Origin: an uncultured delta proteobacterium
GTDB taxonomy: Bacteria > Desulfobacterota > Desulfomonilia > Desulfomonilales > Desulfomonilaceae
DNA: 64,000 bases
Assembly: GCA_963789265.1 (NCBI GenBank)
Contig: CAWBKB010000005.1
Coordinates: 480,001-544,000, forward strand
Direction: 5' to 3'
The first letter of the stretch is position 1. The number at the start of each line of letters is the position of its first letter. The position numbers and the translations under genes were made by a program. Below the pieces are notes generated by a model. The model made no database searches. It saw only the letters and a list, made by a program, of their open reading frames with translations, and was not told the DNA's origin. This document shows positions 1,619 to 62,922 of the stretch, piece after piece.

Positions 1619-2302
1619 TCACAAAAGTTGGGCTTCTCTTCGGCGGAAGACAATGAAACTGCGTGCCAAATACGGGATAGGTACACTCCAAATGTGCACC
1701 AAGCGGCTGAATGGCGAAAAACCTAACAGGGCGAGTGCGGCGAGTATATGAACCTTATATGTCCAGGGAACACTAGCCATCAGATTCGGGTCGGGAGTGA
1801 AGGTCACTATCCCGCGTATCCAGGGTGCGATTGTATACAAAACTTTTGTCCCGTAGCCTCCCCAGAGGGCGTTATAGAGACCTAGGCTAACAACTACGAA
1901 GAGAAGGAAAAGGGTTACGAAGTCGTTGACAGAGGTATGGAGCATGACTCGTTTTCTGGTCAAACGACGCCCCAGCAAAAGGATGAGGCCGACCCACGCC
2001 AGAGGTCCAATAACTATCCCCACGGCAATAGCGACAAATTCATGTATTTTTGCAGTGATGCCAAACATATCGAGGACGTGCTGCGGAGTCAAAAGACCTG
2101 TCAAGTGGCCTAGAAAGGTGATGATTATCCCCCAGTGGAAGATTGTGATCCCGTATTTTAAGCTGTCCTTATCTAGAAGCTCGCTGGATTTAGAGTTCCA
2201 GTTATAAGGATCCGTAAAATAGCGATACGGGTGCCCAAGAACGAATATGGTCAACGCAATGTAAGGAAACGCCACGAATGCCAAAACATTCAAAGTATCC
2301 AT
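1619..2302 (-). CDS. narI: Respiratory nitrate reductase gamma subunit (cytochrome b)
   Basis: FHWGI...GH, HILAAL and PFSRLVHIWSVP motifs; position after narJ. Confidence 0.93.
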   Translation of the reverse strand: MDTLNVLAFVAFPYIALTIFVLGHPYRYFTDPYNWNSKSSELLDKDSLKYGITIFHWGIIITFLGHLTGLLTPQHVLDMFGITAKIHEFVAIAVGIVIGPLAWVGLILLLGRRLTRKRVMLHTSVNDFVTLFLLFVVVSLGLYNALWGGYGTKVLYTIAPWIRGIVTFTPDPNLMASVPWTYKVHILAALALLGFSPFSRLVHIWSVPIPYLARSFIVFRRREAQLL

Positions 2303-2305
2303 ATC

Positions 2306-2836
2306 TTACTCTCCTTCGCCGGTTAGCTCTCGAGCCGTCATTAAAAGCGCTTCAACGAGCCCGGCATAGGAACACCCTTCCTGCTCCCCAAGCCGAGAGG
2401 CTAAGTCGGAAATGTGGGTTTCATATTGTGCGAGTATCTTGAAGCGGGTCTCGCTACTGCAAACAGACAAGAACTCAAGAATCAAAGGGAGATAGTCGGG
2501 CAATTCCTTGGTGGACAACTCATAGCCCGCATCTTTGTAAAGTTGGATCAAACGAACCAGGGCGAACCCCCGCTCCCTGGATTCTCCACATTCGTGAAAT
2601 GTCATATTAAGGCAGGTCGAGGGATTGAGATCGAAGAGCCTCGTATACTCTTCCTGCAACCCAAGTAAAGTTATTGGTTCGACGCATGCTAAAAAATCAT
2701 TGCATTTCGCTTTCACAACCGAGTTGGAAAATCTGCTGACAAGATCGCTCAGCTCCTGATGATCTTCTATGAGTCTCTCATCCGGATAGCTAAGCAAGGC
2801 CGAAAGGACTTTGAAAACGGAACGGGACTCTTCCAT
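2306..2836 (-). CDS. narJ: Nitrate reductase molybdenum-cofactor assembly chaperone
   Basis: LLSYP, QEEYTRLFD and ELPDYLPLILEF motifs. Start placed at ATG 2836 (GGGAG RBS); the longer ORF-track start runs into an intergenic repeat. Confidence 0.88.
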   Translation of the reverse strand: MEESRSVFKVLSALLSYPDERLIEDHQELSDLVSRFSNSVVKAKCNDFLACVEPITLLGLQEEYTRLFDLNPSTCLNMTFHECGESRERGFALVRLIQLYKDAGYELSTKELPDYLPLILEFLSVCSSETRFKILAQYETHISDLASRLGEQEGCSYAGLVEALLMTARELTGEGE

Positions 2837-2890
2837 TGCTCCCGACTCATCCTCTCCAAAAGTAGTAATGGTGCAATCAGTCATTTGACA

Positions 2891-3077
2891 CCGATTCGCT
2901 TTCAAACAAGTGATATGGGCCGATAGCAAACGGCACTGACCTGGCGCCATGATGGCGCTCAGGTCAGTGGCACCCAACATCCGGTCAAGATCGGGTCCTG
3001 GGTGCCACGGATCTGGGCTCTGTCAGATCCGTGCTGTATTTCCTCGATTGTTCACCGTTTGATCGCGCACTGGTATG
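2891..3077 (+). repeat. ~190-bp triple-hairpin dispersed repeat, copy A (inside nar operon)
   Basis: Hairpins CACTGACCTG..CAGGTCAGTG, GCACCCA..TGGGTGC and CACGGATC..GATCCGTG; homologous to 37063-37202 (reverse) and 50831-51035. Confidence 0.8.
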
Positions 3078-3132
3078 ACACCTAATAACTTCGGTAGAGC
3101 AGCACGCGGCCGTCAATTTTGCCAAGGTTAAT

Positions 3133-4557
3133 TCACTGTTCAGGAAAACCCAATGTACCTTGTGCTCGATGCAGGTCTTCCGTATCTTCCCTTTTAACTG
3201 TAGGAATTACGTAGCGATCTTCGCGCTTTGCAATTGAAAGGAGGCGGAACATCTCGTCGGCCGACGCTGACGTCAGCCCTACTTCTTCCAGCACAGATAG
3301 GTCGGGATTACTTTCGACTCGAATGGAACGTCTGTACGCGCGCAGTGCCTGCAGCCTTTTGAGCGCCATTCTCACGGGAGCCTCATCTCCCGCTGTTAGC
3401 AGATTGGCCAGGTAAGTCACGGGAATTCGCATAGCATCAGGTTCCTGTGGCCAGGTCTTGGTTCCTTCCGAGGTTCGCACTAATGGGCTCAAGGGAGGTA
3501 CGTACCAGACCATGGGAAGCGTCCGAAATTCCGGATGAGGAGGGAACGCGAGCTTCCATTTCACTGCCAGTTTGTAAACGGGGGAAGCTTGAGCCGAGGC
3601 AATCCAACTTTCCTGAATTCCGTCCGATAGTGCAGTTCCTATGACATCCGGGTCGTATGGATCCAGCAGCATTTCCAGGTGCGCCTGATAAACCTGCCTA
3701 TCATCGGGCACAGCAGCGGCTGCCTTGATTTTGTCCGCATCGTACAATAGCACGCCGATGTACCTGATACGCCCGACGCACGACTCCGCGCATAGTGTCG
3801 GTAATCCCGCCTCTATTCTTGGGTAACAAAGGAGACATTTCTCTGATCTGCCCGCCCGCCAATTATAATAGACTTTTTTGTACGGGCATCCGGAAACACA
3901 ATAACGCCATCCCCGGCACCGCTCCTGATCCACGAGCACAATCCCATCTTCGTTTCGCTTGTAAAGCGCGCCCGACGGACATGAAGCTATGCAACCTGCA
4001 TTCAAGCAATGCTCACAGATCCTGGGAAGATAGAACATGAATACCTGCTTAAATTGGAGATAAGCCGCATAATCCAGGTTCTTGAAGTTCACGTCCCCGG
4101 GCCCGGTTTTCGTCACTCCGGCCAAATCATCCTCCCAGTTCGGACCCCAAACGATCTCCATGTTGTCGCCGGTGAGCAAAGATTTGGCTCGTGCTGCAGG
4201 CTGGTTTGAGCCTAACGGGCTGGAAACCAGCTTTTCGTAATCATAAGTCCAAGGCTCGTAGTAATCGTCGATATGCGGGAGATCAGGATTGTGGAATATT
4301 TTCACAAACTTCTCGAAGCGCTCACCGGCACGCAGGCGCAGCTTGCTATTTTTCACCTCCCAGCCGCCTCGATGAAGCTCCTGGTTCTCCCATTTCTTGG
4401 GGTAGCCAATGCCTGGCTTGCTCTCCACATTGTTGAACCACATATATTCTGTCCCGACACGGCTGGTCCACACATGCTTGCACGGAATACTGCACGTATG
4501 GCATCCAATGCATTTATCGAGGTTCATGACCATAGCCATCTGAGCTTTAATCTTCAT
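3133..4557 (-). CDS. narH: Respiratory nitrate reductase beta subunit
   Basis: MKIKAQMAMVMNLDKCIGCHTCS, PRICEHCLN, CRGWRYCVSGCPYKK and KCLLCYPR Fe-S motifs. Confidence 0.96.
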   Translation of the reverse strand: MKIKAQMAMVMNLDKCIGCHTCSIPCKHVWTSRVGTEYMWFNNVESKPGIGYPKKWENQELHRGGWEVKNSKLRLRAGERFEKFVKIFHNPDLPHIDDYYEPWTYDYEKLVSSPLGSNQPAARAKSLLTGDNMEIVWGPNWEDDLAGVTKTGPGDVNFKNLDYAAYLQFKQVFMFYLPRICEHCLNAGCIASCPSGALYKRNEDGIVLVDQERCRGWRYCVSGCPYKKVYYNWRAGRSEKCLLCYPRIEAGLPTLCAESCVGRIRYIGVLLYDADKIKAAAAVPDDRQVYQAHLEMLLDPYDPDVIGTALSDGIQESWIASAQASPVYKLAVKWKLAFPPHPEFRTLPMVWYVPPLSPLVRTSEGTKTWPQEPDAMRIPVTYLANLLTAGDEAPVRMALKRLQALRAYRRSIRVESNPDLSVLEEVGLTSASADEMFRLLSIAKREDRYVIPTVKREDTEDLHRAQGTLGFPEQ

Positions 4558-7500
4558 ACCATTCCACCTCGCGCGCTTTGCGCACAACAATTATTGTGTC
4601 TCGTTGAGCGCCTGTAGGTCCGTAATAGTTAAAATCGTAGCTAAATTGCGCGTAGCCCCCAATCATGTGGGTCGGTTTCACCATGATCCTCGTAACACTA
4701 TTGTGCATGCCTCTTGTGTGTTTAGAAAGCCCGGAGCCGGGACTGTCGAATATCCGCTCCTGCGCGTGGTACATCATGGCCTTTCCACGAGGGATTCGGT
4801 GGCTCACTACAGCCCTGGCCAGAACCACTCCATGCACGTTGAAACACTCCAGCCAGTCATTGTCTTCAGCGCTGATTTCGGATGCATCCTCATTGTTGAT
4901 CCATATAGCTTTTCCACCGCGGAAAAGGGTCGTCATGATGTAGTCTTCAGAGTACATGGAGTGTATTGACCATTTTGAGTGAGGGCTCAGATAGTTCAGG
5001 ACAATTTCCTTGCCTCTCTCCCGGTTCACGTCGGTCTCGCCCAGAGCCTTGAGGTCGACCGGCGGACGGAATAGGGGCAAGCCTTCCCCAAAAGTCAGCA
5101 TCCACTCGTGGTCGTGATAAAATTGCGCCCTGCCGGTGAGGGTTCGAAACGGAAGCTTCTCTTCAATATTGATGACAAAAGCGGAATATGTCCTGTGTTC
5201 AGCTTCGATGCCGCTCCAGATGGGAGAAGTTATGACTTTGCGCGGCTGGTCCGTAATATCTGCAAAACTGAATTTTTCGCCCTGTCTTGGCCTGCTCAAG
5301 TGATTGAGACTGAGCCCGGATTTCTTCTCCACCCCTGCCCAGGATTTGACCGCGACGTTTCCATTGGTCTCCGGTGCAAGAGTCAAAATAGCTTGGGCCA
5401 CCTGTTTCCCGGTTTCCAAGCGAGGCATGCCCTGGCTCACTCCAGGCTCTTTAACGATCCCAAGCTTCGCCTTCAATTCAGAATGCTCTTCGGCGCCATT
5501 CCATAATACCCCTTTGACTCCTATGGTCGCGTCAGCGACAAGTGGCCCCATAGAGGTCATCATTTTGTAAACATTAGGAAAGTCTCTGGTTATCACCGAG
5601 AGATTCGGCATGGTCTTTCCTGGAATTGGTTCAGCCTCTCCCTTTTTCCAATCTTTGACGCTGGATTGGGCAATTTCTCCGGGGGAATCGTGAAGCAAGG
5701 GGGTTGCCACCAAGTCTTTCTGCGAGCCAAGATGCTCAGCCGCCAATTCGGAGAATTTTTGCGCGATGGCCTTGAATTGATCCCAATCGGTTTTGGCTTC
5801 CCAGGGAGGATCTATCGCGGGGGTAAATGGATGAATGAATGGATGAAGATCGGTGGTGCTCAGATCGTGAGTCTCGTACCAGGTTGCCGCGGGCAGTGCT
5901 ACATCGGCAAATAGTGCGCTTGTAGACATCCTGAAGTCGAGTGTTACGAGCAGGTCGAGCTTCCCCTCGGGCGCAGGCTCCCTCCAGAAAAGCTCCTCGG
6001 TTCTTTTTTCACTTTCCGAGCCCAACACCGAATTGTCTGTCCCCAGCAGGTGCTTCATGAAATACTCGTGCCCTTTGCCGCTGGAGCCCAGGACATTCGC
6101 ACGCCAGAAAAATTGCACACGAGGGAAATTATCCGGACTGTCCGCGTCTTCGGCAGCGAATTTGACTTCGCCGCTCTTGACCTTTTTCACCACGTTAGCG
6201 ACGATCTCCTCGTCCGATCCGGCTCCTTGCTTGATTGCTTCTCGGCAGAGCTCCAGAGGGTTGCGATCGAATTGCGGATAGAAAGGAAGCCACCCAAGCC
6301 TCGCCGCGATGACGTTGCAATCTGCAGGATGTCGGGGCACTTCTCGGTTTGCCAGCGGTGAGGCCAAGGTTCTGAGGTCCAGCGCATCATACCGCCACTG
6401 ATCGCTTGCAAAATAAAAATAGGACGTCCCGTTCTGCCGCCTTGGCGGACGAATCCAATCCAGTCCGAAGGCCACCGTGGCCCAGCCTGCCATCGGACGG
6501 ACTTTCTCCTGACCGGTGTAATGGGCCCAGCCGCCGCCGCTGACTCCCTGACAGCCACATAACGTGGTGAGATTGAGGATCGTCCTGTACGTCATGTCAC
6601 TGTGGAACCAGTGGTTCGATCCAGAACCCGAGGAGAATCATTGACTTGCCATGGGTTTTCTCGGCATTTTCGGCGAATTCCCGTGCAACGCGTATCGCAT
6701 CTTCCCTGGGCACGCCGGTTATCGACTCCTGCCACGCGGGCGTGTAAGGCACGGCATCGTCGTAACTGCTTGCGACCTGGCCTCCGTGACCTCGATCCAC
6801 ACCGACATGCGCGATCATAAGATCGAAGACCGTAGTAACCAGGATTCCCCGGCCTCCGCGATTAATCTTCTTGACCGGGACGGTTCCGACCTTCACTGCT
6901 GGTCCATCGAACTCGAATAGTGGAAATCCCACTGATACCCAACTTTCGTTATCTTCCGCGAAGCTAAGCAGAGGATCTACATCCGAGCCGGCCACGGAAT
7001 CCTGAGCCCGCAGATTCCATCGGCCTTCTTCATTCCAACGAAAACCTATGCTCCCGTTGGGGACGACGAATTTGCGGCTGTCAGCATCGAAATAAACTGT
7101 CTTCCACTCCGCATTGTTGAGTTCGAGACCCAGATCGGAGGCCCGAAGGAAGCGGTCGGAAACGAACTGCTCCCCCTCTTGCTTCAAGATGACTGCAAAG
7201 GGGAGATCGGTAAATGTTTTGGCGTAGGAAGTGAAGTAGTCTGACTGCCGATCGATGTAGAATTCTCTAAGGATCACAAAGGTCATGGCCATTGCCAGGG
7301 CTGAATCCGTTCCTGCTTTCGCGGGGAGCCAGATGTCTGCAAACTTCACGTATTCTGCATAGTCCGGTGCCACAGCCACTGTTTTGGTCCCTGCGTATCG
7401 TCCTTCCGAGTAAAAATGAGCGTCCGGCGACCGGGTCATGGGGACGTTTGTGCCCCAAACAATGAGATAACCAGCCTGGTACCAATCCGCGCTTTCAGGG

Positions 7501-8241
7501 ACGTCCGTCTGCTCTCCCCATACTTGAGGCGATGCTGCTGGCAAGTCTGAATACCAATCGTAAAAGCTGCACATCGCGCCCCCGATCAGCGAAATGAACC
7601 GCGCCCCCGAGGAATAGCCGACCATCGACATTGCAGGGATCGGCGTAAAACCGAAAATCCTGTCCGGCCCGTATTTCTTGATCGTATAAATGAGCGCTGC
7701 CGCTATCAGAGTGGTTGCCTCGTCCAGACTTGCACGCACGAATCCGCCCTTGCCTCTGGCCCGCTGATAAGTTTTTCTCTTGGCCTCGTCCTCCACAATG
7801 CTCTGCCACGCTGAGACAGGATCAGGCTGAGACTTGAGAGCTTCTCGCCACATTTCCAGCAGAACTGAACGGATATAAGGATATTTAAGTCGGTGCGGGC
7901 TGTACGTATACCACGAGAAAGTGGCTCCTCTCGGACAGCCTCTGGGCTCGTGGTCGGGCAGATCCGGACCGCACCCGGGGTAATCCCTTCTCTGGACTTC
8001 CCACACGATGATCCCGTCTTTGACAAACACGTCCCAGGAGCAGGAGCCCGTGCAGTTAACGCCGTGAGTGGAGCGGACTTTCTTATCGGTCCTGCCATCT
8101 TCTGCGGTAAAAATCTTCCCACTCTCGCTCTCCGCAGAGTACCTCTGCCCAATTCTCCGCAACTTTTTCCGTGCGGCATTGTTGATTTTGATTTACGGGT
8201 CGAAGGAAGTTCAGGAACGACATAGCATTTCTTCTTGGCAT
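4547..8241 (-). CDS. narG: Respiratory nitrate reductase alpha subunit, two apparent frameshifts (~8090, ~6630)
   Basis: Three consecutive pieces join up: EREWEDFYRRRWQ, then STHGVNCTGSCSW...EPRGCPRG...SFYDWYSDLP, then GGGWAHYTGQEK...YYGPTG. No Tat signal seen. Each break is fixed by removing one G. Confidence 0.93.
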
Positions 8242-49835: not shown

Positions 49836-50787
49836 CTAAAATTGCAGCAGTCGCGTGATTACGGCAGCGACGGATGTTACAAAAGCGGCGCCGAGAAATT
49901 CCGGAATTCTGAAAAGTCTCAGTTTGGCAAGCGAGGATTCGATGGCGACCAAAACCAGGACAAATGCCAGGATTTTTGTCAAGATTAGCGGAACTGCCAG
50001 CAACAACTCTCCGACAGATTGTCCGTGAGCAAGACCCCAGGGACTGACCAGCACGTTGAGGAATATGCATAGAAGTACAAAGAACTTCATGCATCCCCCC
50101 CATTTCATCAAAGCGGCGCCTCGGCCAGAATACTCCAGTCCCTTGGACTCATCCACCATGGCTAGCTCGAAATGGCCGGAAGGGCTGTCTACAGGGATGC
50201 TTCCGGTTTCAGCGATGATCAGCATCAGGAACGACAGAACCACCAGCACATGCGCGGGTTCAAAGAAATTCGCCATAGGCGTGACCCAGTGTTTTTGAAC
50301 GATGTATGGAATGGTGGAACCTGCAACGAATGAGACGGTGAAGAAAACAATCATGAACACCGGTTCGGCTAAAAATCCCACCATCCTAGTACCGGCTGGC
50401 CCCCATTGGACCGTACGGGTTTGCAGTATCAATGGCCGCAAGCGTCGCAAAAAAGCCACCGAGAGCTAGAATAAAGCCACCTCCCAGCATGTCTGCCATG
50501 AAAGCGAAGAAGAGCGGGTAGCTCGTGAGGACAGGTATGAGCAGCGTCACGAAGATCGGCGTGACAAATACTATGTACGGGGTGACGCGAAAAATCCAAG
50601 AAGAGTGCTCGGATACGACTTCGTCTTTGTGAAAGAGCTTCCATATATCAAAGTACGGCTGAAAAACGCTGGGGCCTCGCTTGGACTGGATTCGCTCTTT
50701 AAGGCGACCAAGCACTCCCTTTACGAGAGGGGCAAAAGCCATTACCACGAGCACCTGCATTAAATTAAACAGGATTTTCTGGGCCAT
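49836..50787 (-). CDS. HyfC/HycD (NuoH-like) membrane subunit, apparent frameshift ~50392
   Basis: QSKRGPSVFQPYFDIWKLFHK...GPMGASR, then AEP, ETGSIPVD, ELAMVDE..EYSG, ESSLAKLRLFR. Confidence 0.88.
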
Positions 50788-50830
50788 GCGTTTACCTCCT
50801 GTCGCCATAGCCGCTTGTTAACAAGTCATG

Positions 50831-55539: not shown

Positions 55540-55562
55540 AAAAAACCCACCTTGCGGTGGGA
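55540..55562 (-). terminator. Riboswitch-2 terminator
   Basis: Minus strand CCCACC-GCAA-GGTGGG-TTTTTT. Confidence 0.78.
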
Positions 55563-58698: not shown

Positions 58699-60525
58699 TT
58701 ATTTCTGACTTTCTTCACAGATCCCGGTCAAGGCATGTGCAGCGGATTCCAACCGCGCCACTTCATCGAGGATTGCTTCGGCATGTTCCTTCCTCTTGGT
58801 ATACGCGGCCTGAATAGCTCCGTGCGTGGCTGCAATGGTTTCTTCAAAACGTTGATCCAGTGATAAGGCGAAGCCGCGAAACGCGTTGTTAAGGTTTTGC
58901 AAGGTCGCCCATCGAAGGTTTTCCACGTTCTGCCGAACCAGCGCGTCAATCTGTCTGCCCAGGCGCTTCTTGAGTCTGCTGATACGAAGAGACGCCGGCA
59001 GGAGTCTATCAAGGGCCTCTTCCGGAATCACAATTGGCAGAGTGGGTACCCGCTTCCTGAGCACCCAGTGAGGCCGCCGCTTCACCTCAAACGCTTCGGA
59101 GCTTTCCGGAGCATGATATGGGATGTTAAACAGCTCTGCCGCGGCTTTACGAATCGCTTGGATCAACTCGTCTGCTCGCTGCTGGTGCGGACGCAATGTT
59201 TCCGTCACATGCCGGCCAAATCCTTGAGTCACATCCTCGGCCGAACCTTGGAAGAATGAGGTTACCTCCTCTGCCAGAGCATCCATAACAGTCGCTTCCT
59301 TCACTTCCCCGTCTTTCATGGCTGAGAAAGATGCCTCCACTACGCTCTCAAGGTGATCTACGGACGTTTGCCGGAGCGCTTCGGCCTGCTGCTCCAGTGA
59401 TTCCAGCGTACGTTTTCTGTCACCGGTCAACAAATCTTGCGCGGCGACTCGCTGGCCTTCCGCATTTTTCAGCTCTCTTTCGAAGACTTGTAAGCGGCTT
59501 TCCAGGTCATCCAGGGGCATTTGCAGGGTACGGATCGCCAGCCGGAGTCTCATCACAACTTCTTCAAGAGCGTCGGTAACTTTTCGTCCCACGGCTTCAC
59601 GCAAAGCGTTCGCCTTTTCGGAAACGAGAAAACATATCAGATGGTCTTCGACCTCATTTAAGCCGCTCTGGGTCCATAAGTCGGCATCTCCGAAAAGCTT
59701 GGCGTCGAGACCGCGGCGTGAAGATACACAGAAAATCGGATGATCGTTTGTCACCTGAAGTTTTTCGGTGAGCACTTTCTTGAAAAAAGCTAAAGCGGTT
59801 TCTCTTTCATGCCCATTGAGGTAATCCACCTTGTTAAAGATGAAAAAGAGACGGGAAACTCTGGATCGGACCGCTTTCAGAAACTCGGCTTCCACTTCTG
59901 TGAGGGGCGGGTCCGCCGAGACGACAAATAGTGCCGCGTCGCACTGGGGAAGAAAACTGAGAGTAGCTTCCGTATTGTGCGTAAAAGTGGACCCAATCCC
60001 AGGGGTATCAATCAAAACGACGCCATGTTGGAGAATGGCAGCGGGGTGAAAGATCTCCACCTGAAGAACTCCAAGTCGGTTTTTCGGGTTGCCCTCTTCG
60101 GTGACAAAGCTTTGTAAGATTTCGGCAAGCTGTTCGGAGGTTTTTCCGGCAAATTCCTTCACGGGTCTTTCGTCCAGGTAGCAGACCCGGATTTTTCGCT
60201 CGGGACCATATTCCACAAAAGTTGGGATGGCCGTTAACGGCACAACGGAAGTCGGCAAAAGCGCCTCGCCAAGAAAGGCGTTTAGAAGTGTGCTCTTGCC
60301 ACGCTTGAATTGTCCCAATACTGCCAGGTGGAAGCGCCCTTCTTCCAGACACGTGCGGAGGGCGAGTAATCTCTCCCGGTCGCCGTAGAACTGACTTCCG
60401 AGAGATTCCACAATTCTTAACGCTTCGCCGAGGAGTAGCTGGAAATCGATTATAGCTCGGGAATCTTGCTCGTCCGGGCAAGTTAGCGTTTCTAAAGCGG
60501 AATTCTCGCCTATCTCGGATCTCAC
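58699..60525 (-). CDS. Bacterial dynamin-like GTPase
   Basis: G1 GQFKRGKS, G2 VVPLT, G3 DTPG, G4 NKVD, long helical C-terminal stalk; GTG start with AGGAGG. Confidence 0.9.
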   Translation of the reverse strand: MRSEIGENSALETLTCPDEQDSRAIIDFQLLLGEALRIVESLGSQFYGDRERLLALRTCLEEGRFHLAVLGQFKRGKSTLLNAFLGEALLPTSVVPLTAIPTFVEYGPERKIRVCYLDERPVKEFAGKTSEQLAEILQSFVTEEGNPKNRLGVLQVEIFHPAAILQHGVVLIDTPGIGSTFTHNTEATLSFLPQCDAALFVVSADPPLTEVEAEFLKAVRSRVSRLFFIFNKVDYLNGHERETALAFFKKVLTEKLQVTNDHPIFCVSSRRGLDAKLFGDADLWTQSGLNEVEDHLICFLVSEKANALREAVGRKVTDALEEVVMRLRLAIRTLQMPLDDLESRLQVFERELKNAEGQRVAAQDLLTGDRKRTLESLEQQAEALRQTSVDHLESVVEASFSAMKDGEVKEATVMDALAEEVTSFFQGSAEDVTQGFGRHVTETLRPHQQRADELIQAIRKAAAELFNIPYHAPESSEAFEVKRRPHWVLRKRVPTLPIVIPEEALDRLLPASLRISRLKKRLGRQIDALVRQNVENLRWATLQNLNNAFRGFALSLDQRFEETIAATHGAIQAAYTKRKEHAEAILDEVARLESAAHALTGICEESQK

Positions 60526-60586
60526 GATAAGCCCTCCTGTTTGTACCTTTCAATCAGCGGAGTTCCACGGATAGACGGTTGAAAAT

Positions 60587-60609
60587 AAAAAACCCACCTT
60601 TTGGTGGGT
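60587..60609 (-). terminator. Riboswitch-3 terminator
   Basis: Minus strand ACCCACC-AAAA-GGTGGGT-TTTTT. Confidence 0.78.
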
Positions 60610-60646
60610 ATCCGCAGGACCGGTCTCCCACCGCGAAGTCTCCGAC

Positions 60647-60693
60647 GGCAGGAGTCATCAGCCCGTGACGAGCATTTGGGGGACTCCATCCCC
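60647..60693 (-). ncRNA. Fluoride (crcB) riboswitch 3, upstream of dynamin-like gene
   Basis: Minus strand GGGGATGGAGTCCCCCAAATGCTCGTCACGGGCTGATGACTCCTGCC; TTGACT-17 nt-TACAAA upstream. Confidence 0.9.
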
Positions 60694-60830
60694 TTTTAGC
60701 CATTTCCTATTTTGTATAGCCACGGTTGTGAAAAGTCAAGGCGCAAACTTTGGGCGAATGCAAGCATTCACGTACGTGGGGCAGGCTTTCCAACCTGCCT
60801 CACACGATTGCTTACCGGCGAATAATCGGT

Positions 60831-62922
60831 TCAGATCAGCGGCCTCCTCATCAGAAGCTCAAGCGCTCGCCGGGCTGTAGCGGCGAGTCCCGGCTCCTCG
60901 GCCTCGAGAGCCAGCAATTGGCGGAGGTGATCCGCAGTCCGCAGGATCAGCATTGCCAGATCTCCCTCATCGGCCCCGATGTTGGCCGTAAGTTGAGCCC
61001 AATCCACGTCTTCAGCCCACAGAAATACGGAAGCGGCCGGCCAAAACATTATGGTTGGTGTGTCGAAGCCCTTGGCAGCCATGAACTGGGCCAGAGGCTG
61101 CAATTTTTGCATTGTGTGGCGAAATCTCTTCCAGAGCGGCCGGGTTTGGTCCCATAGTTCCCTGCTTATGAGAATCTCTTTGTCCTTATCCAACACGAAC
61201 GGCGCAATTAGTGCGGCAAGTTCCTGGGGACCCAGCCCGGCAAATTCACCCTGCCTTATCAGTTCCGCTATCAAAAGAGGATGATCCAACCTCAATTGCG
61301 CAGCCCATCTGCCGTCATAGGTTGGAACCCCGGCTTCGTCTAAGTAATTCAGTTTCTGCGAGCAAACTTGCATGCCTTTGAAATTCCCTGAGCAATCTGG
61401 AATGAACTTTGGCTGCTTGACGTGGATTCTCCCGGAAAGCGGCAAAAGACAGGCCGAGCAGTTTTCTGACACCGGCCGGGTCGTGTGAGAGCAAAAGGTT
61501 GAGCGTCATTGAGAAATTGACTGCAATTCTGGATTGTAAGGGCTCCGGGTCGGAAAATATCAATTCCTTTACGAGGCCGATGTTCAAAAATTTGCCTGGT
61601 ACCACAAGAGTGTAGCCCGCATTGTCCATGCCTCGCCTTCCGGCGCGACCTGTCATCTGGTGGAGGTCGGTCGCGGTCATATCCACGAACGTTCTGCCGT
61701 TGAAACGGTCGCTCTGCACTAGGACAACGGTTCGGGCAGGAAAATTGACACCCGCCGCCACTGTAGATGTGGAAAAGATTGCCTCCAAGTGCCCGGAGAC
61801 CATCATTTTTTCGATCAGAAGACGCCAGCCTGGGAGTTGACCGGCATGATGTGAACCGGCCCGACAGTGTAGCAGACGGCTGAGCTGCCTATGTCGTGCC
61901 AATTCCGGATAGCCGGCGAGTTGGTCTTTGACCGCCTGGGCGAACCCCCCGTCCTCCGGCTTCAATGGCGCCGGAAGAAGGGCCTGGAGTGCGCTGTCGC
62001 AGTCCGATCTGGATTTCAGGAAAATAATTGCCGGAAGAAGGTTAAATTCCCTCAGAGTCCCGACAATCCCGTTTATCTCTGGAGGTCTTGCTGCCTGGAC
62101 TCTCTTTCTCCCCTTTTCGGCCTTTGCATACGCTGCAACTTTCGGAAAGATTCTGGTGCCTCGCAAAAACGGGGTGAGTTCTCCGCCTGGGGTCCTGAAA
62201 AGCACGTGAAGAGGAACCGGCCGGATCTTCGAATAGACCACCGAGCAGGTTTTATTTCTAATATGAGTCAGCCACCGGGCAATGGTGCCTGCGTTGGAAA
62301 CAGTGGCTGAGAGCATTAGGAGCCTTACTCTGGCCGGCAGATAGATAAGGACTTCTTCCCAAACCACTCCTCTATCAATGTCGCCCAGGTAATGGGCTTC
62401 ATCCAGGATTACCAGGTCAACGTCGATGTCGGTGCCCGTCTGCATGGCATCATAGAGTTGATTGCGAAGGATCTCCGTTGTGCCGACAATCACGGGTGCG
62501 TCAGCATTCTCCTTGCGATCGCCGGTGAGAATTCCGACGCGGTCGCGGCCGAAGGTTTCCCCGAATTCCTCGTATTTGGCGTTGGACAGGGCTTTCAGAG
62601 GAGTCGCATACCATGTCCGGCAATTCCGCGAGAGAAACTCTTTCGTAGTTTCCAGCGCGATCCAGGTTTTCCCCGAACCGGTCGGCGCGCTCACCAGAAC
62701 ATCGCTCTTACTAACCTTTCGGATGGCTTCGTTCTGGAAAGGATCCGGGATAAAAGGAGAAGGTTCGGGCTTTCCTATGTCCTCCAGGAGACGCTCGGCT
62801 TCCTCATGAACGCGGTGAATCAGGGGTTCTTGAGGGGCGCTCTTGACTCCTCCTCGATGTCCCTCGAAAAAGATTGCTTTCTTGCGAAATGACTTTTTGT
62901 GTTTATGTTGAAACGATCTCAT
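60831..62922 (-). CDS. Ski2/HelY-like DEAH-box helicase, apparent frameshift ~61355
   Basis: APTGSGKT, TPLKALSN, DEAH, LSAT, HHAG, QMTGRAGRRG; the C-terminal piece continues in another frame. Confidence 0.88.

Follow-up and report, generated by a model that had tools for sequence, protein, structure and literature searches.

What part could a dynamin-like GTPase play in the response of a bacterium to fluoride? The question is raised by a 64,000-nucleotide (nt) stretch from an uncultured delta proteobacterium of the Desulfomonilaceae (assembly GCA_963789265.1, contig CAWBKB010000005.1, positions 480,001 to 544,000; hereafter the window, meaning the whole stretch that was analysed), in which the gene for a 608-residue dynamin-like GTPase stands directly behind a fluoride riboswitch. 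The best explanation that we can offer, and one that we consider evenly balanced between right and wrong as a whole, is that a fluoride-ON transcriptional riboswitch gates a stand-alone GTPase of the IniA/BDLP type, which would serve membrane upkeep. The parts of this explanation differ in strength, and we take them in turn, starting from the leader of the gene.

The window holds three matches to the fluoride riboswitch model (Rfam RF01734; gathering score 34), all on the minus strand, and the GTPase gene is the first gene behind the third of them, as an earlier note on this DNA had described: aptamer, terminator, Shine-Dalgarno sequence and GTG start follow one another on the same strand, and the span 58699-60740 to which that note referred corresponds to the GTPase gene plus its leader. 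The elements are as follows.

60713-60739, minus strand: candidate sigma-70-like promoter (TTGACT, 15 nt, TATACA), weak and recognised by eye, ending about 10 nt ahead of the aptamer
60702-60642, minus strand: RF01734 aptamer heading the GTPase gene (41.9 bits, E 3.1e-08, full model 1-64)
60633-60625, minus strand: switching segment CGGUGGGAG, which can pair with the aptamer 3' strand CUCCUGCCG or, via GGUGGG, with the terminator's 5' arm
60609-60582, minus strand (hairpin to T run 60609-60592): intrinsic terminator ACCCACC-AAAA-GGUGGGU, seven pairs followed by a U run, from terminator scan and fold
60538-60533, minus strand: Shine-Dalgarno sequence AGGAGG, 7 nt ahead of the GTG start, from the sequence
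60525-58699, minus strand: dynamin-like GTPase, 608 residues, PF00350 (Dynamin_N)

The aptamer reaches 59.2 bits with our own covariance model and ends 117 nt before the start codon at 60525; an orthologous aptamer occupies the same position in L001, one of the homologous loci described below. The candidate promoter was not called by a consensus scan, which demands a spacer of 16-18 nt. In the ligand-free minimum-energy fold, the aptamer 3' strand CUCCUGCCG is paired with CGGUGGGAG and the terminator is formed. GGUGGG is present twice in the leader. When the aptamer keeps its own 3' strand, the first copy might become a rival partner for the terminator's 5' arm, and we infer from these pairings that the leader is an expression platform of the usual ON design.

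Is the position of this riboswitch meaningful? Across the whole genome (6.06 Mb in nine contigs, 95.6% complete) we found no match to RF01734 beyond the three of the window, all of which lie in one island, and because the genome has only three such riboswitches the pairing with the GTPase in the window is far beyond chance. We then turn to 65 GTPase loci from species-representative genomes, obtained by a scan seeded with peptide words of the query and thus a sample of relatives, which range from the Desulfomonilaceae to Planctomycetota, Bacillota, Acidobacteriota, Chloroflexota and the archaeon Methanolinea, down to 31% identity. Of these, 58 are assessable, the rest being C-terminal fragments only (three loci) or having less than 150 nt upstream (four loci). 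With a covariance model built from 17 aptamers and run across all 65 loci, an aptamer was found on the same strand, 25-327 nt ahead of the aligned start, in 46 of the 58; in four others it lies farther upstream as the head of an operon (L035, L040, L041 and L055 (40.8 bits, Rfam)), and two hold sub-threshold candidates (L054 with 31.3 bits and L057 with 26.5 bits). Rfam itself, applied to ten diverse loci, placed an aptamer directly ahead of the GTPase gene in seven. In L035 (Holophagaceae, 1984-7863) one riboswitch heads three tandem dynamin-like genes of 702, 585 and 638 residues, and for the middle one the alignment shows a loss of the P-loop region.

A hairpin with a T run stands between aptamer and GTPase gene in 28 of the 46 directly linked loci. 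The other 18, from Planctomycetota, Methanolinea and others, have no such hairpin, and their coding region begins a short way after the aptamer, a layout suggestive of translational control in these loci. The same link is thus found with two types of expression platform, indicating that the connection of switch and gene is kept while the read-out mechanism changes.

Genome-wide counts show how specific this connection is. In a sample of 122 genomes of the window's class, its own genome included, 62 genomes hold riboswitch matches over the cut-off, 91 in all, and 48 genomes hold GTPase gene heads (E <=1e-20), 53 in all. For 47 of the 53 heads (28 of the 34 that score at least 300 bits and all 19 distant ones), the 600 nt upstream include a riboswitch on the same strand, and 47 of the 91 riboswitches head a GTPase gene of this family; no other first gene is as common behind fluoride riboswitches in the class. 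A control with all 75 PF00350 matches of the same sample (E <=1e-8) gave 45 with a riboswitch within 1 kb upstream and 30 without, the latter made up of six switch-less family members and 24 other proteins, mostly tandem sets unmatched by the window protein, for which no riboswitch was found anywhere on their contigs. Among 121 archaeal genomes, all from the order to which a Methanolinea carrier belongs, an aptamer, in one case below the cut-off, lies within 1 kb of 18 of the 20 GTPase gene heads, one of the two remaining heads being at a contig start, and 17 of the 58 riboswitches head a GTPase gene. The single riboswitch of a Pirellulales genome also stands ahead of the GTPase gene. The earlier note had allowed for the case that homologs rarely carry the riboswitch, and the proportions in the homologous loci, the class and the methanogen order all run the other way.

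These counts bear directly on the possibility that the pairing has no functional meaning and that a defence-type or housekeeping dynamin lies by chance near the riboswitch of other genes. Such a reading could draw on weak PADLOC matches of the GTPase to LeoBC (E 3.1e-19) and LeoA (E 2e-16), of a dynamin defence system, yet it has to reckon with an aptamer, a terminator and a Shine-Dalgarno sequence directly ahead of the gene on the same strand, and it is contradicted by a link that recurs across phyla and in both domains with two expression platforms. The window, moreover, has a single dynamin gene and not a Leo-type set. The Leo 'dynamins' form a defence system that needs several genes, and a search of the window genome found no second PF00350 gene near the GTPase. 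We regard a meaningless pairing as scarcely credible, and regulation of the GTPase gene by fluoride as nearly certain.

What kind of protein, then, is placed under this control? Its identification as a dynamin-like GTPase, first made from the translation alone, holds up well. PF00350 is matched with an E-value of 2e-28 and 100 bits (cut-off 27) across nearly the whole profile (1-167 of 168 positions). GTP-binding motifs are defined as G1 (the P-loop), G2 (a threonine), G3 (DxxG) and G4 (N/TKxD); the GTPase has GQFKRGKST at 71-79, T98, DTPG at 173-176 and NKVD at 231-234, and in an alignment of 40 relatives these motifs are nearly invariant, each at least 90% conserved. An AlphaFold2 model computed from this alignment (predicted local distance difference test score, pLDDT, 81.3; predicted template modelling score, pTM, 0.70) places the G domain at about 62-285, followed by long helices at 289-335, 338-402, 410-465 and 511-607 that would form neck and trunk. 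The model aligns over nearly its full length with IniA (6j72: Z 25.2, 516 of 561 residues, root-mean-square deviation 8.6) and over 542 residues with the BDLP of Nostoc (2j69: Z 22.1). Foldseek also returned BDLP as top match (E 5.9e-22), with a further match at E 2.7e-21. By sequence, the best solved relative is Nostoc BDLP (2j68, E 2.1e-26, residues 53-366), followed by the Campylobacter DLP pair and IniA (E 2.7e-16). The predicted fold is that of the BDLP/IniA/mitofusin type, a G domain with two folded-back helical bundles.

Narrower family assignments were rejected. The score with the DynA equivalog model (NF052648) is 76.8 bits where 1600 are required, the GTPase having 608 residues and one G domain versus about 1190 residues in the two-headed protein; LeoA (NF041922) is matched with only 18 bits against 325; and the PADLOC scores, 67.6 bits for LeoBC and 58.2 bits for LeoA, express family-level likeness only. 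Clustered at 50% identity, the family has 1796 representatives with E <=1e-30. In the window genome the riboswitch-gated GTPase is the only strong PF00350 match; five weaker matches all lie far from any riboswitch, and in a tree made with a quick method the other PF00350 proteins of this genome sit on very long branches.

Because fold and motifs are those of a mechanochemical GTPase of the IniA/BDLP type, membrane remodelling is the probable biochemical activity of the predicted structure. No transmembrane stretch was found in the GTPase (the highest 19-residue hydropathy is 1.34). The loop at the tip of the trunk, residues 466-503, carries a conserved IPY..AP....FE..R.PYWV pattern with four aromatic, six basic and six proline residues, and it sits where a membrane-binding element would be expected, in a part of the model that has low confidence and lacks a hydrophobic stretch.

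Remodelling could take more than one form. The GTPase may pinch off membrane vesicles and so discard damaged membrane or cargo under fluoride stress: its closest full-length fold match, IniA, mediates membrane fission according to the available part of its description (PMC6715688), and vesicle secretion in M. tuberculosis is ascribed to dynamin-like proteins in the accessible text of PMC10240201. Against this, there is no conserved cargo or vesicle partner beside the GTPase, the gene directly downstream varying by lineage. We consider vesicle shedding improbable.

The neighbourhood of the gene offers further evidence on its role. All open reading frames (ORFs) of the 65 loci were clustered and representatives scanned against Pfam, and the surroundings of the GTPase gene are those of a classical fluoride island. 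In the window, the genes and riboswitches downstream of the GTPase are the following.

58449-57688, minus strand: cysteine-rich protein of about 253 residues, the next gene downstream of the GTPase, its start placed by the L001 alignment
57502-56225, minus strand: second enolase copy (Enolase_C, E 2e-117), the other copy of the genome being on contig C3
56180-55764, minus strand: 138-residue protein without family, the last gene ahead of the next riboswitch
55654-55594, minus strand: RF01734 match (56.1 bits), preceding a MutS-domain-V pair and an HAD-like gene
51242-51170, minus strand: RF01734 match (48.1 bits), preceding a Hyf/complex-I-like membrane complex

No terminator-like site was found by the terminator scan at the 3' end of the GTPase gene, and the cysteine-rich protein, the second enolase and the 138-residue protein are probably on the same transcript. 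Of the 65 loci, about 22, among them loci of Planctomycetota, Bacillota and Methanolinea, have an enolase gene farther down the same strand; a Na+/H+ exchanger (the Na_H_Exchanger cluster) occurs in 15, MFS transporters in 13, Usp proteins in 11 and CrcB in five, and further companions are DUF190, MutS-like pairs, a histidine phosphatase and HAD-like proteins.

The frequent enolase gene invites comparison with a familiar theme, the supply of inhibited enzymes in additional copies. GTPases are trapped by complexes of GDP with metal fluorides, which resemble the transition state. The GTPase might accordingly be one more fluoride-sensitive enzyme, frozen in its GDP-metal-fluoride form and made in larger amounts for an everyday membrane function, as with enolase. 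Its gene is probably co-transcribed with a second copy of enolase, the standard example of compensation of this kind, which fits this reading; structures of dynamin-family proteins and of Era with GDP.AlF4- (6djq, 7c1o) are among the fold matches, and many bacteria are stated to synthesise additional copies of fluoride-inhibited enzymes in the part of PMC12700350 open to us. The window genome, however, has no constitutive copy of this family, its only strong PF00350 match being the gated gene; with 47 of the 53 genes gated in the class sample, the function seems to be wanted only under fluoride, unlike that of enolase with its housekeeping copy. On this evidence dosage compensation is unlikely.

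The membrane proteins of the islands raise another possibility, that the transporters or the respiratory-type complex under the same fluoride switches depend on the GTPase for their insertion, clustering or stability. The frequency of the Na+/H+ exchanger, MFS and CrcB genes and the Hyf-like complex behind a neighbouring riboswitch in the window would agree with such a helper, and the earlier note had proposed that the GTPase assists the assembly of the co-regulated membrane complex. That proposal is not supported, as no more than two of the 65 loci (L023 and L043) have Hyf/complex-I-like genes along with the GTPase. There is no constant membrane partner, and at several loci the GTPase is followed on the same strand by soluble proteins only or by nothing; we consider a helper function improbable. 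What follows the GTPase directly depends on the lineage: a cysteine-rich protein, an alpha-alpha toroid protein, a TPR-like protein of about 108 residues (five loci of Planctomycetota type) or enolase. Since there is no universal partner, the GTPase looks like a unit of its own; its gene is a singleton in the window and in most loci.

Two of the local companions deserve mention. The prenyltransferase-like toroid protein (PF00432, about 290 residues) occurs in seven loci, directly after the GTPase in L042, L050, L058 and L059, directly before it in L054 and further downstream in L045 and L057, and is a candidate partner of the GTPase in those lineages. Relatives of the cysteine-rich protein adjoin the GTPase in 14 of the 65 loci (tblastn), all close kin, with two tandem copies in L007; their alignment shows invariant CERH, CLMCE and CGxC...RCRxH motifs, and the protein probably binds metal. 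Its assignment to DUF6062 was tried and dropped after the Pfam scan. A complex prediction of the GTPase with the 253-residue protein, run without controls, scored 0.00, which speaks neither for nor against a partnership. Relatives of the 138-residue protein occur in 14 of the 65 loci, within fluoride islands and mostly after enolase. Neither this protein nor the cysteine-rich one has a Pfam match beyond noise even at E 10, nor any NCBIfam or PADLOC match.

Some other features of the window may be recorded here. The riboswitch ahead of the MutS-like pair has a terminator (CCCACC-GCAA-GGTGGG and a T run, 55546-55561, minus strand) nearly identical to that in the leader of the GTPase gene, a likeness in sequence which suggests that the expression platforms of the two riboswitches were duplicated along with the aptamers. 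Upstream of the GTPase, a Ski2-like helicase gene (60831-62922, minus strand) is split into two overlapping ORFs of 535 (DEAD and Helicase_C) and 213 residues (DSHCT), which overlap at 61315-61472; as the helicase is a single ORF of 733 residues in L002 and L010, the split is a probable frameshift or assembly error. Behind the riboswitch at 51242-51170, a gene like NADH-dehydrogenase subunit 1 or HyfC also consists of two overlapping ORFs (49836-50808, minus strand; PF00146 4-131 and 138-287), a probable frameshift.

How would the GTPase under its fluoride switch work? We envisage that, with no fluoride, the aptamer 3' strand would pair with CGGUGGGAG, the terminator would form and transcription would halt. 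With fluoride, the aptamer would keep its 3' strand, the freed GGUGGG could pair with the terminator's 5' arm and the polymerase would read on into the GTPase gene, and probably also into the genes for the cysteine-rich protein, the second enolase and the 138-residue protein. The GTPase might then dock on the cytoplasmic membrane from the inside via its aromatic and basic tip loop, and GTP-driven pairing of G domains could tether, fuse or pinch off damaged membrane, so that the membrane would stay sealed at a time when energy metabolism is poisoned by fluoride and the envelope is more easily damaged. That the GTPase serves to maintain membrane integrity under fluoride stress, a role assigned by analogy, is to our mind nearly an even bet. 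We favour it because the closest analogues, IniA and DynA, are stress-induced guardians of the membrane and because fluoride is reported to damage the envelope of S. mutans, with extensive membrane and wall damage described in the available portion of PMC12700350. The earlier note had also suggested that membrane remodelling may counter HF permeation, but the data offer nothing in favour of an altered HF permeability over membrane repair or maintenance.

Several observations weigh against this explanation. The tip loop is poorly modelled (pLDDT below 50 at 478-494) and not markedly hydrophobic, and membrane binding through it is a guess by analogy. The commonest companions (enolase, Na+/H+ antiporter with Usp, MFS, MutS-like ATPases and phosphatases) would suit any role in fluoride stress, not specifically membrane repair. 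No riboswitch was found in six of the 58 assessable loci (L016, L020, L027, L046, L053 and L056), even with filters off where this was tried, and six of the 53 GTPase genes of the class sample are without one; all these counts include related, non-independent genomes, many of them fragmented metagenome-assembled genomes. Switch-less members are scattered across the family in the quick-method tree, many forks of which are weak. One subclade (G043, G045, G046, G066, L016 and L020), at about 63-65% identity and with a break in the alignment near residue 510, lacks the riboswitch and may be a paralogue escaped from fluoride control; G045 has one gated and one ungated copy. A look-up of sequencing runs for the window returned three rows of soil-metagenome DNA from one study and listed no RNA run, and we know of no experiment on any member of this GTPase family.

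Fluoride resistance is at present explained by export through Fluc/CrcB and CLC-F, by pH homeostasis, by extra copies of inhibited enzymes and by a few unexplained riboswitch-linked genes. Is the GTPase already among these? The earlier note knew of no described role for bacterial dynamins in the fluoride response, and literature searches on fluoride riboswitch and dynamin agree: in the searchable literature, which does not extend to the original census (Baker 2012) or to McIlwain 2021, where a listing is possible, we found no description of the pairing. Papers with fluoride riboswitch and GTPase include none on the pairing by title, and co-occurrence of the terms, where checked in the accessible parts, is confined to references or methods; a search for transcriptome work on fluoride riboswitches in Desulfomonile gave nothing relevant by title among the matches listed. 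A 2024 review names exporters, Na+/H+ antiporters, pyrophosphatase, HAD proteins, enolase, formate hydrogenlyase and chorismate mutase as genes behind fluoride riboswitches, and the part of it available contains neither 'dynamin' nor 'GTPase' (PMC11139923). Neither word occurs in the main text and eight supplementary files of Weinberg 2010 (PMC2864571).

The exporter CrcB is rare in the window's class. It was found over the cut-off (PF02537) in four of the 122 class genomes versus 11 of 14 control genomes, and a search for it in the window genome found none. That genome has four CLC matches, none near a riboswitch, a count in which CLC-F and other CLCs are not told apart. Fluoride riboswitches, by comparison, are present in 62 of the class genomes, and in those without CrcB the exporter may be CLC-F or a riboswitch-linked MFS protein, or there may be none. 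A mutual exclusion of CrcB and GTPase was considered and rejected: none of the four CrcB genomes has the GTPase, which is not significant at an expected overlap of about 1.6, and in other phyla the two share one operon.

It is conceivable, if somewhat less than an even prospect, that single dynamin-like GTPases are a primary determinant of fluoride tolerance, an export-independent membrane branch common to bacteria and methanogenic archaea. In a bolder form of this idea, the GDP-metal-fluoride state that freezes other GTPases would here be the working state and lock the GTPase onto the membrane. If such a branch exists, it would matter most in anaerobes like the window's class, with its few CrcB genomes and with half of its fluoride riboswitches driving the GTPase. 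The tight link in several bacterial phyla and in methanogens would imply that fluoride stress strikes at the cell membrane itself, or that the membrane helps to withstand it. Few natural triggers of bacterial dynamins are known, and these proteins would gain a chemically defined inducer, together with an easy test in the form of growth and membrane integrity with sodium fluoride. There would be consequences, too, for fluoride toxicity where soils and sediments are anaerobic, and for the engineering of microbes that tolerate the fluoride released by organofluorine breakdown.

Where does the GTPase unit stand among known systems? IniA, an isoniazid-inducible dynamin-like protein of Mycobacterium, is part of the iniBAC operon, whose response to drug treatment runs through protein regulators. 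It is the best full-length structural match to the GTPase (PDB 6j72, 6j73) and of almost equal length (606 versus 608 residues), and both proteins lack a transmembrane segment. IniA is induced by drug treatment in the portion of PMC6715688 at hand, so that expression of both would be turned on by chemical stress, the fluoride part being predicted. The two differ in that identity is only about 18%, the GTPase locus has no iniB or iniC partners, and the trigger would be fluoride read directly by RNA. The BDLP of Nostoc punctiforme, for which we know of no link to fluoride, binds membranes via a hydrophobic paddle, whereas the GTPase has a loop rich in proline, aromatic and basic residues and without a hydrophobic stretch at its tip. 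BDLP is the best match in sequence (PDB 2j68, 2j69, 2w6d) and has the same order of G domain, neck and trunk. Bacillus subtilis DynA and Campylobacter DLP1/DLP2 (PDB 5owv) share the dynamin-family G domain with the GTPase. DynA clusters in response to pore-formers and phages and has a role in membrane protection, according to the accessible part of PMC12998192, and most bacterial DLP genes are paired, as stated in the available text of PMC6104087; DynA is a two-headed fusion, unlike the GTPase, a singleton with one G domain. The classical fluoride-riboswitch units (crcB/Fluc, CLC-F, Na+/H+ antiporter, enolase, pyrophosphatase, HAD, formate hydrogenlyase and MutS-like) have the same aptamer family and terminator-based ON logic as we propose for the GTPase unit, which shares its islands with classical fluoride genes, namely those for enolase, Na+/H+ antiporter, Usp, MFS, CrcB, DUF190 and MutS-like proteins. 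The unit thus belongs with two known kinds, the fluoride-riboswitch regulon and the stress-induced bacterial dynamin, and its recurrence in most relatives, bacterial and methanogenic, points to a widespread part of the fluoride response.

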